Below, piece by piece: positions 3,122 through 63,697 of a stretch of 64,000 nucleotides of DNA; the stretch's first letter is position 1, and each line of letters starts with the position of its first letter. The notes beneath the pieces are model-generated. The model searched no databases. It was not told where the DNA came from and saw only the letters and a program-made list of their open reading frames with translations. A program made the translations under genes and the position numbers. Source of the DNA: Leucoraja erinacea (taxonomy: Eukaryota); assembly GCF_028641065.1 (NCBI RefSeq), contig NC_073403.1, positions 13,020,001 through 13,084,000 on the forward strand, in the 5' to 3' direction.

Positions 3122-3644
3122 CCTTTTGGAGTATTGCGTGAAGTTGTTCTGTTACGTTGAGGGCTAATTCATGCTGCCAATCAGTTATAGTTCTCATTGA
3201 AAGAGGCAGTTGTTTGTACTTTGAAACCTTATCGGGGTCTACGCATCCTACAACTTCGACAATGCATTATTTTATGATTACTACATCGCTAAATGGCCTC
3301 CCTCCTCCCCCCCCCAGCATATAAGCTACTTCGGTAGCATTATATACGGGTTTTACCGCTGCTTGAAATAACTGCCTTTGCCTTTGCTTTTCATCTTTTC
3401 ATTTCTGCAATGCAACCTTTCGCGCCTCTCTCAAATTTGAAATATTTGTGGTCCTTATGAGTGGCATAATGCTGATGAGCGGCATAATGCTGATGAGCAT
3501 TGAATTTCTTCAATGTTGATATTGCAGTATCACAAAGCGAGCAAATCATCTTATCTTTAGCAGAAACAAGATAATATTGCAGTTCCCAATCCTAATTAAA
3601 AACTATTTTTCTTCCATCAGCATTCTCTTCGTTTTCTTTGACAT
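3122..3644 (-). pseudogene. Decayed N-terminus of a hAT transposase (BED-type zinc finger, GTF2IRD2/SPIN-like)
   Basis: Hand translation across stops and frameshifts gives MSKKTKR..DWELQYYLVSAKDKMICSLCDTAISTLKKFNAHQHYATH..RPFSD..CIVEVV..KYKQLPLSMRTITDWQHELALNVTEQL. An 18-nt tandem duplication lies at 3463-3498. Confidence 0.75.
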
Positions 3645-11194: not shown

Positions 11195-11419
11195 GTGTTT
11201 AAGAAGGAACTGCAGATGCCGGAAAATCGAAGGAACACAAAAAAGCTGGAGAAACTCAGTGGGTGCAGCAGCATCTATGGAGCGAAGGAAATAGGCAACG
11301 TTTCGGGCCGAAACCCTTCTTCAGGCGGTCTGAAGAAGGGTTTCGGCCCGAAACGTTGCCTATTTCCTTTGCTCCATAGATGCTGCTGCACACGCTGAGT
11401 TTCTCCAGCTTTTTTGTGT
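11195..11419. mobile_element. Palindromic (inverted dimer) PLE terminal-repeat insertion
   Basis: About 90-bp inverted arms (11235-11324 / 11330-11419) with a 5-nt spacer, and a 14-bp TSD acattgtatatgta (11181-11194, 11420-11433). Confidence 0.85.
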
Positions 11420-11844
11420 ACATTGTATATGTACATGTGTATATAAAGTCCAGTCTGTGACAGCGGTTATATTTATTCAGTTTTTGTCTGAGGGTCTCCA
11501 ATAGCTCAACTCATGCAGTATTTTGTCATCTGAATTTTTAATGTTCAGCTGAAAAATACACAGCTATGAGTTCAGCACTTGTCTGAAGGGTCTCGACCCA
11601 AAAACGTCACCTATTCCTTTTTTCCAGAGATGCTGCCTGACCCACTGAGTTACTCCAGCTTTTTGTGCCTACTTGCAAATAATCAGCAGTTTCGGCCTTT
11701 CTATTCTACATTTCCTGTTTATTCCTTCTTTTCTATTTTTATATTCCCCTCTTTACAACTCCTCCAGACTTGACCACTTCCTATTCACCAATAACCCCAC
11801 CACCTTATTTCACCTCTTCACCTGCTGTGACCCTCCGTCCCATC

Positions 11845-34951: not shown

Positions 34952-35085
34952 TTCTTGCGTATGGCGTGCACAGCCTAAAGTTGTAGGACAACTTGTTCTA
35001 TTTGACCTTATTTGATAGTGCACACCAGGTTGATTGCATTTGTCAAAACAGTGCTGACCATGTGAAGGTTGGATTCTCCCACCCC
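34952..35085 (-). mobile_element. Short retroposon headed by an HDV-like ribozyme, older copy
   Basis: Near-identical to 50076-50214. The 5' end reads GGGGTGGGAGAATCCAACCTTCACATGGTCAGCACTG, with several pairing-breaking substitutions. Confidence 0.7.
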
Positions 35086-41555: not shown

Positions 41556-41806
41556 GAAGATAGACACAAAATGCCGGAGTAACTCAACGGATCATGCAGC
41601 ATCTCTGGAGAGAAGGAATAGGTGACATTTCAGGTCGAGACCCTTCATCAGACTCAGACTTCATCAGACCTTGAGTCTGATGAAGGGTCTCGGCCCAAAA
41701 TGTCACCTATTCCTTCTCCCCAGAGATGCTGCCTGACCCGCTGAGTTACTCCAGCATTTTGTGTCTATCTTCGGTGCAAACCAGCATCTGCAGTTCCTTC
41801 TTGCAC
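41556..41806. mobile_element. Palindromic PLE terminal-repeat insertion
   Basis: About 100-bp inverted arms around ...cttcatcagactcagacttcatcagaccttgagtctgatgaag..., with a CTGATGA core on both strands. Confidence 0.8.
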
Positions 41807-45499: not shown

Positions 45500-45662
45500 A
45501 GGTTAGAGCGGTTCAGAAGGCTTCAGGGGTGTTCAGAATGGTTTTGATGGGATTGGCAGGATTCAGAGGTGTTTAGAGGGGGTTCAGACCGGTTCAGATG
45601 GATTTGGAGCGGTTCAGAGGGATTTACAGGGGTTTAAACGGGTTCAGAGGGGTTTAGAGGGA
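45500..45662. repeat. Degenerate ~10-bp tandem array (ggttcagagg-like)
   Basis: Recurrent ggttcaga/gtttagag at about 10-nt spacing. Confidence 0.7.
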
Positions 45663-45664
45663 GT

Positions 45665-45942
45665 CTGGTGCGAAAACTGTGATCCTGGTGCGAAAACTGC
45701 GAGCGTTCCGCAAAAAAAGTGTGAACCTGGTGCGAAAAGTCGAGCCGTCTGCGAAAAATGCCAGCCTGATACGAAAAGTGCGAGCTTTTGCGAAAATTGC
45801 GAGCCTCGTGTTACATTTGCGAGACTGGTGCAAAAAGTGCGAGCCTGGTGCAAAAAGTGCGAGCCTGCCTCGAAAGCTGCGAACCTCGTCTACAAACTAC
45901 GAGCCGGGCGCACAAGCTGCGAGCCCAGTGCAAAACGAGCAA
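45665..45942. repeat. ~20-bp CpG-rich tandem array (gcgagcctggtgcaaaaagt), about 14 diverged units
   Basis: Visible periodicity; explains ORFs 45644-45853 and 45679-46005. Confidence 0.85.
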
Positions 45943-45950
45943 GTCTCAGT

Positions 45951-46176
45951 AAATGGGGAATTAGGGGAGGGCACTAATAAATGGGGAATTAGGGGAGGGC
46001 ACTAATAAATGGGGAATTAGGGGAGGGCACTAATAAATGGGGAATTAGGGGAGGGCACTAATAAATGGGGAATTAGGGAGCGCAGCATTAAATGGTGAAT
46101 CAGGGGAGGATACCATTAAATTGGGATTTAGGGGATGGCACCAGTAAATCAGGAATTAGGGGAGGGCGCCAGTAAA
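45951..46176. repeat. 28-bp G-rich minisatellite (aaatggggaattaggggagggcactaat)
   Basis: Unit starts at 45951, 45979, 46007, 46035 and 46063; four identical units are followed by diverged ones. Confidence 0.92.
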
Positions 46177-46201
46177 CAGTGGCACAGCTGCCTCACGTTC
46201 A

Positions 46202-46386
46202 GATTTAAGAGAGAGTTAGATATGGCCCTTGTGGCTAAAGAGATCAGTGGGTATGGAGAGAAGGCAGGTACAGGATACTGAGTTGGAAGATCAGCCATGA
46301 TCAAATTGAATGGCGGTGCCGGCTCGAAGGGCCGAATGGCCTACTCCTGCACCTATTTTCTATGTTTCTATGTTTCTATCTTTCTA
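46202..46386 (+). mobile_element. CR1 3' tail
   Basis: atttaagagagagttagat...ctattttctatgtttctatgtttctat. Confidence 0.9.
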
Positions 46387-47922: not shown

Positions 47923-50075
47923 CTGTAAACATATGATGTCTTGTTTTCGATTCCCCACCCCAATCAATTCAGCAAGTTTCTGTCTTACGATCAAAGTTGA
48001 CCTTGCCCCAATGCAGGAATTTAACTTGTGGGCTCATCCTGCCCTTATCCATAACTATTTTAAAGCTAATGTAACTGTTGCTGATGGTCCCAGAAGGCAA
48101 GCCCACTGACATTTCAGACACTGGCCCTTCCCAATTTCCCAAAGAGTAAGTCAAGCTTTGGCCCCTTCCTTGTAGGCCCCTCTACGCCTTGCATTAGGAA
48201 ACTTTCCCCAAGCACATTTGACAAATTCCATCCCATCCAAGCCCTTGACACGATGGCAGTTCCAGTCAATATTGGGAAAGTTAAAACCCCCTAATATGAC
48301 AACTTTATTTCCTTCTAATTCCCGTTGACAATTTGGGGGCCATTAAAAGCTTCACACTTACCCTTAACTTGAACCTCCACACAGCCGCTCCTAACAGGCC
48401 ACTCCACTAGACACTGCCTTCCTTTTTATACACCCACTTGGAGCACCTTTTCTTTACGGTCAGCTGCTTTCAGCTGCAAAACTGGATGAATCTTGTTAAC
48501 TGGCTGACTTTCAAAATTCCCACTCTTCCATTCCTGATGGTAGCTGCTCACAGAATATACAGAGAGGCTGACTTTCTGACAACCATGTCTGAGTTATATG
48601 TAGAGGATGTGTACAAACCTGAATCTTCATGAGTTAGAAGGGTAGATATTGTAGGATGAATGCCTCCAATGACCTTTCCCCTTCTCGGCCACTGACAAAG
48701 GACAGAGGTCAGGACTGAGGGGATTGCAGGGAATGGGTTCAGGGAGAAAGAGCATATGATAGAGATGGCCTGAAGAACTGATTGTGGGGAGGAGAGGCCT
48801 CGGACCTTGAATGCGTACCAGTGAAATTAGTGATGTCGACTGGATATGCGTTGACACCAGCGCACATGTCAAGATGTCTCCACATATTAGACTGAGAAAG
48901 TAGAAGAGCAAGTGAAGGACTTTTGTCGTCTGAAAAATGAGCAACAGTATTCTCTGCAAATTGTATCACATTGAATGTATCCACTTATTGCTACCCATAC
49001 AATTTCATGGACATGGCCTTTGTGAATACCTCAATTAAAAGGCAGCACCTTTGGCAATGCAACACTTCTCGAGTGCCAGGCTGCAACAAATATATACGTC
49101 CCATTTAAAGTTTTGAAACTGCTGCCGATATAAATGTTTGGTTAATTAAATTCTGTCAACGGTGTCTGTGTCTTCCTATTAATGATAAAGGAACAAAAGC
49201 GAAAAGCTGACAAATTGATCATTGTGATGGTCCCCAAGGTTGGTCATCTATCCCCGCACCCCAAGCAAAATGCACACATGAACAATTCAGCACATAAGTC
49301 CTGCCAAGAGCTCGTCCTTGTACTGAAGTAAATTAGTATGAAAGGTGTTTGCTTCTCCCCATGACATTATGGTAATTACTTGATGTCAATATCAGGTTTA
49401 AAATTCAGCTGCAAAATTATTTGTGATGTTTGTTGGTTCTTCACAGAGCCACAACTGTGCAGCCTGGCATCACAATTACCTGCACTGCAATCAGCTTGTG
49501 TAACAACAAAATACTCAGGGGTTGAACAAGATTTATTTGCACATTAATTTCCACTTTAGGCAAGGATCTTTGTGGCTTTGAGAACATTTACTTGTGATAT
49601 TTATCAATCAAGTGGAAATCAGCACTCATTATAAGGGCAGCCCAAGATCAACCCTTGCCCTGAGCTCTTTAGAAGCCGGCCTTGTACATTCCTCTGCAGT
49701 AGTTATTTTGGTGTTTTAAAGCAGATTCACAGCTCATTGAAGGCTTCACTCACGGCCATAGGGTCAAACTGCATAAAAAACAGGCCCTTCAGCCCACCAT
49801 GACCATGTTTATTGTATAGGCCTCAACTATACTAACCCCATTTCAGGCACTTTGCCCACAACTTTCTATGCTGTGTTGACTCAAATGCCTATTTACTCAT
49901 CTTTAAATGGTGTGCGAGTACCTATCTCCACATCCCCACCAATTCCCCCCCCCCCCCCCCCCTCTCCCCTTCCCCCCCCCCCCCCCCCCCCCCCCCTCCC
50001 CACACACAACTCAGGGGAAGTGAGGTCTAGATTTCAACTACTCTCTGTTGCACTCCACCCCAGATGACATTCTGG

Positions 50076-50214
50076 TCTTCTTCTTGCGTATGGCGTGCAC
50101 AGCCTAAAGTTGTAGGACAACTTGTTCTATTTGATCTTATTTGATTGTGCACGCCAGGTTGATTGCATTAGTCGAAACCGGGCGGACCACGTGAAGGTTG
50201 CAATCTCCCATCCC
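50076..50214 (-). mobile_element. 139-nt retroposon: 5' HDV-like ribozyme, 3' stem-loop and (AAG)n tail
   Basis: 10-bp TSD gacattctgg (50066-50075, 50215-50224), a second copy at 34952-35085, and a structure read by hand (see findings). Confidence 0.8.
50161..50214 (-). ncRNA. Putative minimal HDV-like self-cleaving ribozyme (54 nt)
   Basis: P1 GGGAUGG/CCGCCCG, P2 GAUUGCA/UGCAAUC, P3 ACC/GGU, L3 UUCACGU, mini-P4 U-UUCG-A and J4/2 CUAA, all in the canonical HDV order. Confidence 0.65.
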
Positions 50215-50827
50215 GACATTCTGGCGAATTTCCTCTACACCCTCTCCACTGCTATCATGTAGGAATCAAAACTCTATGATATTGGCCTGGCCAATATTTA
50301 AAAAAAGATGCACCATCACCTCCCTGCTCATATATTCTATGTCCTGGTTAATGAAGCAAAGTATCCCATATGACATCATCTTCAGTTTATCTTGCTGTGC
50401 TGCTACCTTCATGGATCTACAGACCTGTATACCAAGGTCGACTAAAAGTGATGGAGAAACTCAGCGAGTGAGGCAGCATCCATGGATGGAAGGAATAGGT
50501 GATGTTTCAGGTCAAGACGCTTCTTCAGACTGAGGTCCCTCTGTTCCTCATTACCCTCTCACTCTCTTCCATTGATTGTGTATTTCATGGCCTATGCCTG
50601 AATATTGTTCAGCTCTTGCTGTCTGCACACAAGGAGTTATAAATTGAGGTAATTATGGTGCAATTATCAGCAAATTATTTTCAAGGCTTGATAATAGGAA
50701 GATCACTGATGAAACAGCTGGTCATGGTTGTGCTTGGGTGGTTGATGGTCAGTATGGATTTGATGGGACAAAGGAGCCCATCGGGATCTCTCTGTGACTT
50801 GGTGATTCTATACTAGAGAGATTAGGT

Positions 50828-61440: not shown

Positions 61441-62967
61441 GAACACAAGCTCACCAACCTGATTCCCCCCTGCTCATACTGACCCCTAAGCCCTTCTGAC
61501 CAAAACCCCTTCAGAAGTCAATCTTCCTTGACCTCATCTTCTCAACCTCAAATCCTCCTACCCTCTACCCCACAAACCTGAACCCCAACATGCCCTGAAG
61601 ATGCCTTACCTTTGTCCACAGTCCACCCAAACCTGACCAACTGCAAGGAAAGCAAATGTCAATACTTAATGCACAGAGGGCAGCACTGAATAATCTCCCG
61701 CAGTCAAGCTGTCAGTGGTGGATCAGAGCGGAGCAGGGTTAAGTGTGACGGAGATAGAACCAATGTTTTCCCATGATTGTATCAGTGGGTGCAATTACAT
61801 TTTGGAATCATTTCCTTGGCAACACTTAGTGAATCCAAAGTGCGTGCCAATTTCACAATTATCTTTTGTAAGCAGAATGACAAACATCTCCAACACGACA
61901 ACCAATTGCTGTTTCTCAGTATGTATTAATTCTATCACAGAATATATATGATTTGGCGATCTGTGAAAGTCACCCTGACTCCCAGTTAGTAGATTAGGAC
62001 ATTTAGAGTAACACTTTATCCTGCAAATACAAATATAAAGATAAATGTGTGCTGAATGGCCAGTATCATAATGTATCAGGGATCGGTGCTAAATTTAACA
62101 TGGAAATGTTACAGCACTGAGGGAGGCCATTCGACTCATTAAATGTCCTGACCTGAAACACTGTTACCATCCCTCCCCACAGATGTTGCCTGGCCCGCTG
62201 AGTTCCTACAGCAGTTTGTTTATGTGCAATACTAATGTAGTTGTCCCTCTACCCAACCTTCTCCCAAGAGAGTAGTAATTATTTCCTTTTGAAGTGTTTA
62301 GTCAGTTCTTAGTGAGCATCACAATTGGAGTCAAAGTCATGCAGCACAGAAACAGCCCCTTTGGCCCAATCCACCTATGCTGAACAAGTTGCCTATCTAA
62401 GCTAGCACAATTTTCCTGTGTTTGACTCGTATCCCTCTTTTCTATCACATGGTTAATTTTCTATCCACACTGTTAAAGCAACAATTCCGTGGCCTTCAAT
62501 TGAATTTGCCTCCACTATTCCCCTTGAGAATCCTAAACTTTCTCCGTGTAAAAAATAATCTTTCCTCCATTATTTCTTATATTTTTCCACTCATTTTTAT
62601 TTTTGTCCTCTGGTTTCTGATCCTTCATTGGGAATGGTTTCACACTGTCTACTGTGTCTCACCTTTCATGGCATTACACACCTCCTTCTGATCTTATATT
62701 CCTAAGAGGACAATTCCAGCTTTTCCAGTCCCTCGCTGAAACTAAAGTCCCTCTTCCCCAGAAACATTCTTGCAAATTTCTTCAGCACCCTCTCAAGAGC
62801 CTTGACGTTTATCCTACAATCCAGCACCCAGTATATACACTAGACTAAGTGGGACCCGTTGGGTCCCATGTTCACACGGAATTGCTGGTCCCCCAACGCA
62901 ATATTCCACCTCACTCACTCACAGCTGGTGGGCTGGCAGTTGACTCATGACTATTCCTTGAAATTCC

Positions 62968-63320
62968 TTTTTAAGCAGGGTGCAAGAACACCAAATTCTA
63001 ATCCATGTTACTACCACTTTGAGCAGGGTGCAAGGCAACCAAATTCAAGTGCAGTTTCCAACCACTTCAAGCAGGGTGCAAGGCCACCGAATTCAAATGC
63101 AGTTTCATAACACTTTCAGCAGGGTGCAAGGCCACTAAATTCAGTGCAGTTTCATACCACTTCAAGCAGGATGTAATGCCACCAAATTCAAGTGCAGTTT
63201 CATTCCACTTCAAGCAGGGTGCAAGGCCACCAAATTCAAGTGCAGTTTTATTCCATTTCAAGCAGGGTGCAAGGCCTCCAAATTCAAATGCAGCTTCATA
63301 CCATTTCATGCAGGGTGAAA
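62968..63320. repeat. 48-bp minisatellite, about 8 units (ttcaagcagggtgcaaggccaccaaattcaagtgcagtttcataccac)
   Basis: The gcagg core falls at 62975, 63023, 63071, 63119, 63166, 63214, 63262 and 63310. Confidence 0.92.
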
Positions 63321-63697
63321 CCACCATAAAACCACACAAAACACCAAACTCACACTTCAGTAGACATTCAGTGTGTTCAGTTGATTCACAGCTCAGACAG
63401 AGTCGTGACCTCTCGCTCCCCCATCATGCAGAGACTGAGCCACACCCACACTTCCTGGTTTTATAACCCCTCCCCCCCCCCCCCCCCCACCGGAAAAGGT
63501 GTGGCTTTCATGGAGTGATTGTCAGGAGAGAGATTCTCAACATTTAAAAAAAAACTAATAACACTTTTACTTTTCATTGATGGGAAGAATTCTCTGCACC
63601 AGCTCAGCGGAGGGGGACTGAGTAAGATGGCCAAAAATCACAGCCGTAAGTGTAGCGTTTTATCTAAAATCAATATACAGTGCAAACAGGAAGTAAG

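Follow-up and report, generated by a model that had tools for sequence, protein, structure and literature searches.

The 139-nt insertion at positions 50076-50214 (minus strand) of a 64,000-nt stretch of Leucoraja erinacea DNA, referred to here as the window, is a bipartite non-autonomous copy of a LINE. Its sequence and the comparison of its copies reveal directly that an internal deletion has brought together the first ~77 and the last ~45 nt of a ~3-kb LINE found in the same genome. We consider it probable that a Vingi/Ingi-like LINE supplied these ends, that the head likely folds into an HDV-type ribozyme lacking P4 that would cut at G1, and that the LINE protein likely copies the short RNA in trans from its (AAG)n tail. 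A first-pass annotation of the window had described a SINE-like family that borrows a LINE reverse transcriptase (RT); the element is indeed non-autonomous and dependent on a LINE RT, but both of its ends, the ribozyme included, come from one identifiable LINE by deletion.

The anatomy of the element can be followed along the minus strand. The insert is 139 nt long and bounded by a 10-bp target site duplication (TSD), as the annotation had it, with one TSD copy adjoining G1 at 50215-50224 and the other beyond the tail at 50066-50075. Nucleotides 1-54 (50161-50214) constitute the predicted HDV-type ribozyme and correspond to the 5′ UTR of the parent LINE, and every ribozyme segment that had been named in 50076-50214 was found in its place. 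The 5′ strand of P1 (50208-50214) opens with G1 (50214), the predicted cut site, and carries a minority letter, A4 (50211), seen in 5 of the 68 full-length copies described below. The 5′ strand of P2 (50199-50205) has its partner at 50161-50167, and P3, L3, and P3′ occupy 50186-50198, where the L3 sequence UUCACGU equals the loop of the Rfam CPEB3 consensus. The 3′ strand of P1 (50179-50185) has a second minority letter, G36 (50179), present in 2/68 copies where 61/68 have U. Positions 50172-50178 hold J1/4 (GU), with P1.1 made up of C22-G37 and U21/U38, together with a 5-nt stub in place of P4. J4/2 (50168-50171) begins with the candidate catalytic C44 at 50171, the base that the annotation had singled out; it is a C on the minus strand here and in 64/68 copies. 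Beyond the ribozyme, nt 55-77 (50138-50160) are the opening codons of the parent ORF, nt 78-94 (50121-50137) are a junction spacer, and nt 95-139 (50076-50120) cover the end of the same ORF with its stop codon, the 3′ UTR, and the (AAG)n tail. The spacer matches neither LINE end and seems to be a short duplicate of the sequence with which the head ends.

Since it carries A4 opposite C33 and G36 opposite G1, the window copy can form only 5/7 P1 pairs, and with these two mismatches it is probably a weakened version of the ribozyme. A second copy of the same family, at 34952-35085 on the minus strand, is 91% identical and more decayed; P2, L3, and P1′ are interrupted in it, and a clear TSD is lacking. 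Nested folding of the element, a model that leaves pseudoknots outside, recovered P2 (pair probability 0.7, against 0.3 for P1 and 0.2 for P3) and a helix predicted to pair nt 59-69 with nt 114-124 over 11 bp (50091-50156), by which the body folds on itself; the pair probabilities of this helix reach 0.82-1.0 in copy L041. Unusual stability was not found for the element under the same nested model, with pseudoknots again outside it (z -1.57; 14/200 shuffles equally good). At the two strands of the body helix (50146-50156 and 50091-50101), the 5′ end of the LINE can pair with its 3′ end across ~8 nt that enclose a palindromic 6-mer, and a G at nt 61 in 50/68 short copies (LINE-type A in 12) extends the helix to 10-11 bp. 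Selection for this lengthening is a guess, with a single change to go by. A 7-bp hairpin also spans the deletion junction (50107-50123, nt 92-108), and its loop position nt 101 is variable (T in 49, G in 8, A in 7, and C in 2 of the 68 copies). Elsewhere in the window, pairs of ~100-nt inverted repeats lie 15 and 5 nt apart at 41556-41772 and 11230-11424, and tandem repeats occupy 45660-46204 (period 20/28 nt) and 62915-63368 (period 48 nt).

The element belongs to a large family. In the 2.19-Gb genome, a 22-mer from its 3′ end has at least 2,579 exact matches and a 35-nt core pattern at least 2,445, with none for either reversed control; both counts are lower bounds, and the 22-mer count includes LINE ends. 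Of 373 candidates from a DNA search with the element, 40 were scored, and each of these is 95-100% identical along almost its whole length. The short element has no ORF, and its copies are dispersed and carry TSDs. To view the 5′ boundary without bias, copies were picked by their 3′ end, as the first 80 of the 100 listed matches to the 22-mer. Sixty-eight of these align from nt 12 or earlier and were taken as full length, and the other 12 start between nt 19 and 114, one of them being a LINE end. TSDs were sought in the interval between 12 nt before and 6 nt after the point where each alignment starts. Fifty-five of the 68 copies have one, with a length of 8-17 bp (median 11) and with A as its first letter in 42. 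The TSD ends directly before G1 in 23 copies, shares the first G in 12, ends 1-4 nt earlier in 16, and reaches 5-11 nt inside in 4; it thus ends within -4 to +1 nt of G1 in 51/55 and at 0 or +1 in 35. The 30 columns upstream hold no shared sequence, the commonest letter never exceeding 0.47 except for T at -1 (0.63). Because the TSDs end at G1 and the upstream columns have nothing in common, the family ends there and does not reach farther 5′. Copies extending 5′ of G1 were sought among the 68 and were not found as a family feature, and the proposal that the element boundary coincides with the predicted cleavage site agrees with the position of 51 of the 55 TSDs. Half or more of the words of the element are also held by 18 public sequencing runs from seven organisms, and the contigs from those runs likewise break off at 50214. 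Contigs of two runs contain a head-to-tail duplication of the first 68 nt (joint 50214 to 50147), and one locus, L019, has two short-element copies ~1.5 kb apart.

The parent LINE was reached with a pattern that excludes full-length short copies and has 905 matches. Among the 100 matches listed, six have the 3′ tail preceded by a different, common coding sequence, and 317 such LINE 3′ ends were counted in the genome. (A DNA search with the 3′ 70 nt alone gave no partner candidate, a limit of that first look.) Of the 46 loci retrieved, the 44 that could be oriented are 5′-truncated and match one another over at most ~1.5 kb, and a same-strand head was seen in 0/44 of these long copies picked by 3′ end. 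The long copies encode an RT (PF00078), whose relatives are mostly ~1000-aa proteins with an apurinic/apyrimidinic endonuclease (APE) and an RT; no RNase H family was listed for them. The closest relative, P0001, shares 72% identity with the RT of the partner, falls into one clade with the partner copies (100/100), and has an APE domain, an RT domain, and, beyond these, only a weak zinc-binding match. Locus L125 covers P0001 residues 29-1011, in pieces. In a set of 20 long loci, the last 37-45 nt of the element (nt 95/100-139) form the end of 15, at 89-98% identity. A same-strand start with nt 1/5-77 is present in two of the 20, L130 (88% identical) and L125 (81%), the latter with an 11-bp TSD that ends at its own G1, and the head is inverted in three, L114, L115 (93% identical), and L128. 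An unbroken parent ORF was not found among the 20 loci. The first in-frame AUG of the LINE overlaps the last A of J4/2 (A47) and the start of P2′, and the ribozyme is therefore the entire 5′ UTR of the LINE.

Sequencing runs and divergence provide additional views of the parent. In contigs from three other runs, L125 positions 788-792 are linked directly to 3443-3453, with 2651-2660 nt skipped, and the summed depth at both LINE ends is hundreds of times that over the 5′ half of the ORF. Non-CpG divergence from the column majority is 4.3% for 22 LINE ends versus 3.6% (median 2.6%) for the 68 short copies; the ages of the LINE and the short family would thus overlap, both samples being biased toward young copies. 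Many long copies have an inverted 5′ piece (L114, L115, L117, L122, L128, L137, L213, L220, L223, and L228), several of them keeping the ribozyme head, and these pieces resemble what we take to be twin-primed insertions. A DNA search with the upstream part of L094 retrieved a different repeat that had inserted there, and not the LINE.

Domain content and motifs place the partner among Vingi/Ingi-like LINEs. The mark of Vingi is a compact single ORF that lacks RNase H, as described in parts of PMC13708176 and PMC3708506, and the partner, viewed through P0001, fits this mark with its single ORF of ~1000 aa encoding an APE and an RT and no RNase H. Compared by eye, its RT motifs match the Ingi-1_Pp and Ingi-1_BF rows of an alignment in the PMC3708506 supplement and not the RTE rows there; a table in PMC3391268 lists Vingi-1_Pp and Vingi-1_BF. 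An RTE partner, suggested by the (AAG)n tail, was rejected on these motifs, and the RTE-type motif occurs in 0/30 rows of our RT tree. Since that tree had no named Vingi or Ingi reference, we keep to the label Vingi/Ingi-like, an assignment drawn from the domain content and the by-eye comparison. Searches of PDB and the ESM Atlas yielded no clade name.

Whether the head could be a ribozyme is best judged on the family. Over the 68 full-length copies the commonest pair is a standard one at every position of P1, P2, and P3 and at C22-G37, in the nested double-pseudoknot order that had been read from the window copy; that order holds for the family, and in the window copy itself P1 is incomplete, as noted above. 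P1 of at least 6/7, P2 of at least 6/7, P3 of 3/3, and the core letters are all kept by 28/68 copies. A fully paired P1 closed by a G1-U36 wobble, which the annotation had assembled as a composite from the two copies in the window, turned out to be the family majority (G4 in 50/68, U36 in 61/68). The HDV-like core letters that we used, taken from the relevant part of PMC6326823, are the G1 pair, U and CG in L3, and a J4/2 with C first and A last; in the 68 copies U20 is kept in 64, C24 in 61, G25 (a CpG site) in 56, C44 in 64, and A47 in 66. The pair U5-A32 of the LINE and 18 short copies is U5-G32 in 42 short copies, so pairing is retained. J4/2 reads CGAA in 41, CAAA in 13, and CUAA in 10 copies; CUAA, found in the parent and in the window copy, falls outside the CRRA of one published descriptor as given in PMC6326823. 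A two-sided compensatory change was not found within the family (68 copies), and extra conservation of the core was sought there and not found, with substitutions at 19/673 core (2.8%), 71/1965 stem (3.6%), and 110/2846 body (3.9%) letters. Near-equal rates are expected under neutral decay and lend no support to ribozyme function. Covariance models were likewise silent on this head: no Rfam family reached its gathering cut-off on the window, none matched the element at E ≤ 10, and RF00622 (gathering cut-off 35 bits) had no match to the heads of L035, L037, L041, L062, L115, and L130. A home-made HDV descriptor was loose (8 matches in 351,080 bases versus 15 in 1,755,400 shuffled bases) and did not report the window copy or L130; its background being high, only the position of two of its matches, just upstream of an ORF, counts. 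Taken together, the 54-nt head fits an HDV-type fold with P4 nearly absent, and cleavage is predicted.

The best independent evidence that the head may be a ribozyme comes from sister LINEs that share the fold in other letters. Three divergent LINE families of the same genome, 46%, 33-39%, and 37-40% identical to P0001 and in separate starred clades of the RT tree, each start with the same topology, directly observed in their sequences. The letters of P1, P2, P3, and P4 differ, J4/2 has C first in all of them, and their P4 is real (25, 25, and 43 nt). In the L141 family, L3 changes from UUC to UCC together with J1/4 from GU to GG, which gives two P1.1 pairs; P2 is imperfect in this family, and the whole P1 is found only in L141. 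Pairing across the four LINE families was parsed by hand and is not a statistical covariation test. The second Vingi-like family (L138:739 and L139:711, plus strand), 46% identical to P0001, has a nearly intact ORF, a TAAA-type tail, and an HDV-type head, and its first in-frame AUG falls within the 5′ strand of P2. The family of L141, L142, L148, and L149 has an (AAG)n tail, and its HDV-type head contains a 43-nt P4 as well as two P1.1 pairs.

In the mechanism that we favor, a host or neighboring transcript would read through a copy, and nt 1-54 of that RNA would fold and cut 5′ of G1 with C44 as the catalyst, while self-pairing of the body (nt 59-69 with 114-124) would leave the ribozyme core undisturbed. 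The LINE protein would then bind the common 3′ end, nick DNA, and prime on the (AAG)n tail. Target-primed reverse transcription in trans would run off at G1, sometimes adding 1-4 nt, and a TSD of ~11 bp, the length that we observe, would result. Contigs from probable RNA runs (two recorded as RNA and four guessed) continue into the upstream flank; contigs are unable to show an RNA start, strand, or cut.

The sharp start at G1 could also reflect initiation of transcription. The derivation from the LINE would be the same, and the head would act mainly as an internal Pol II promoter or, like Pr77 of L1Tc, which is described in PMC4035085 as both promoter and ribozyme, would serve in both roles. 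The head being the parent's entire 5′ UTR suits such a promoter, and an RNA of 139 nt would be easily copied to its end, however that end arose. A promoter, however, needs no pseudoknot, yet the pseudoknot recurs in other letters in four LINE families. Copying of a cap would leave an extra G, and a single extra G precedes G1 in 0/55 TSD-defined junctions, where the extra letters are mostly T or C; this is a weak argument that points the same way. We regard an origin of the G1 starts by initiation as unlikely; the head of this family, called promoter-less in the annotation, may nonetheless double as an internal promoter, as in L1Tc.

A second alternative, less probable again and in our estimate quite improbable, is that the ribozyme is a vestige: active in an ancestral LINE, too reduced in the short family (no P4, CUAA, the P1 wobble), and irrelevant to a spread that would proceed via read-through RNA or another promoter. 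The near-equal decay of core and body among copies, the A4 against C33 in the window copy and similar copies, and the weak pair probabilities in the nested fold are all in keeping with lost activity. Against this, the P4-less form is already present in the parent LINE, and the changes that mark the short family either leave the pair intact, as A32 to G does, or shift J4/2 to CGAA. If the RNA were neither cut nor started at G1, upstream flank would be expected in the copies, where it is absent. In addition, P4-less ribozymes are active elsewhere, as passages in PMC10879173 and PMC6326823 report. A tRNA-headed Pol III SINE that shares only its 3′ tail with the LINE and has a pseudoknot by chance would account for the size, copy number, G-rich start, and LINE-derived tail, all of them SINE-like, but it is ruled out almost entirely by a head that is 81-93% identical to the LINE 5′ end and continues into its ORF, by A and B boxes that, as the annotation had noted, are not apparent (chance-level matches, the best A box with 3 mismatches and the best B box with 1, equalled by 681/2000 shuffles), and by the lack of any tRNA call in the window.

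The partner LINE led to a testable candidate source for the mammalian CPEB3 ribozyme. In another of the sister families, also Vingi-like, the head of L140 (L140:3602-3686, minus strand) scores 56 bits against RF00622, the Rfam model of that ribozyme, with a cut-off of 35. RF00622 is a proven ribozyme family. A pattern search with a control count of 0 retrieved 20 copies of the L140 family (L211-L230), and 18 of 19 further scanned copies pass RF00622 with 46.9-62.2 bits. These copies begin at G1 with unrelated flanks, and 10/20 run straight into the ORF. L139, of the second Vingi-like family, stays under the cut-off at 26 bits (E 0.005). Compared by eye, the 5′ end of the gharial Vingi-2_Gav, as given in the PMC5786205 supplement, equals the Rfam CPEB3 consensus at 38/40 positions (2-41) and at 14/14 after P4, and in the same supplement the alligator SINE2-1_AMi also shares both P4 strands. 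Descent is tentatively favored over convergence because stems that are free to vary are identical. The L140 family and the likeness of Vingi-2_Gav thus suggest that the CPEB3 ribozyme arose from a Vingi element; a 2021 study reported that this ribozyme had not been found outside mammals. The 139-nt element itself is like the CPEB3 ribozyme in its L3 UUCACGU, J1/4 GU, G1-U pair, and, in most copies, J4/2 CGAA, and unlike it in the letters of P1, P2, and P3, in having no P4, and in having no match to RF00622. On balance, we lean slightly toward a broader reading in which Vingi-type LINEs start with CPEB3-type ribozymes, the 139-nt element has the smallest of these (an active P4-less form of 54 nt with a defined job), and the mammalian CPEB3 ribozyme is the domesticated 5′ end of a Vingi LINE or a Vingi-derived SINE.

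Ribozyme-headed derivatives of LINEs that arose by internal deletion (SIDEs) are a known class, which makes the mechanism a familiar one. From Vingi-1_EE of the hedgehog, non-autonomous derivatives with internal deletions were described (Kojima, Kapitonov and Jurka 2011, cited in PMC5786205 and PMC4494074); they too join both ends of a compact LINE that has a single ORF with APE and RT and no RNase H, but in another host and family, and the passages of PMC5786205 and PMC4494074 that deal with them mention no ribozyme. Section 23 of PMC5786205 names six clades with 5′ ribozymes, Ingi included and Vingi not, and some Vingi families were first named Ingi. The trypanosome pairs NARTc/L1Tc and RIME/ingi resemble our element in the short, internally deleted Ingi-clade partner with an HDV-like ribozyme at nt 1 (PMC4035085) and in scattered insertion sites with ~12-bp TSDs (PMC6765202, a review that sets out the same logic of ribozyme-headed short partners). 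In contrast, the NARTc/L1Tc head is 77 nt and both a proven ribozyme and an internal promoter, and L1Tc has RNase H (PMC4035085), whereas the head described here is 54 nt with P4 nearly absent, resides in an animal, and is active by prediction. R2 SIDEs of Drosophila likewise combine a 5′ ribozyme with the parent's 3′ end and spread in trans, but R2 is site-specific in 28S rDNA and its SIDEs are rare, unlike a dispersed family of thousands of copies (PMC3414825). Minimal HDV-like or theta ribozymes share the absence of P4 and the catalytic C first in J4/2; nearly 99% of those in PMC10879173 come from phages, with an origin and role that the paper calls undetermined, whereas here the form sits in an animal LINE and its short derivative. 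Neither this family nor a ribozyme of any named Vingi element was the subject of a paper in the literature covered (including parts of PMC4494074, PMC5753468, PMC6326823, PMC8256844, and PMC10919898), and an earlier mention, for example in Kojima 2011, Ruminski 2011, or Repbase/Dfam, is possible. What appears to be new is the combination of a Vingi-like parent, an animal host, a predicted P4-less ribozyme head of 54 nt, and thousands of copies. If the favored mechanism is true, a P4-less minimal HDV-like ribozyme, a form reported almost only from phages and metagenomes according to PMC10879173, would gain a function in an animal genome. The element would then stand as a naturally selected 139-nt minimal template for a Vingi-type protein, of a clade described as now in use for RNA-based gene insertion.
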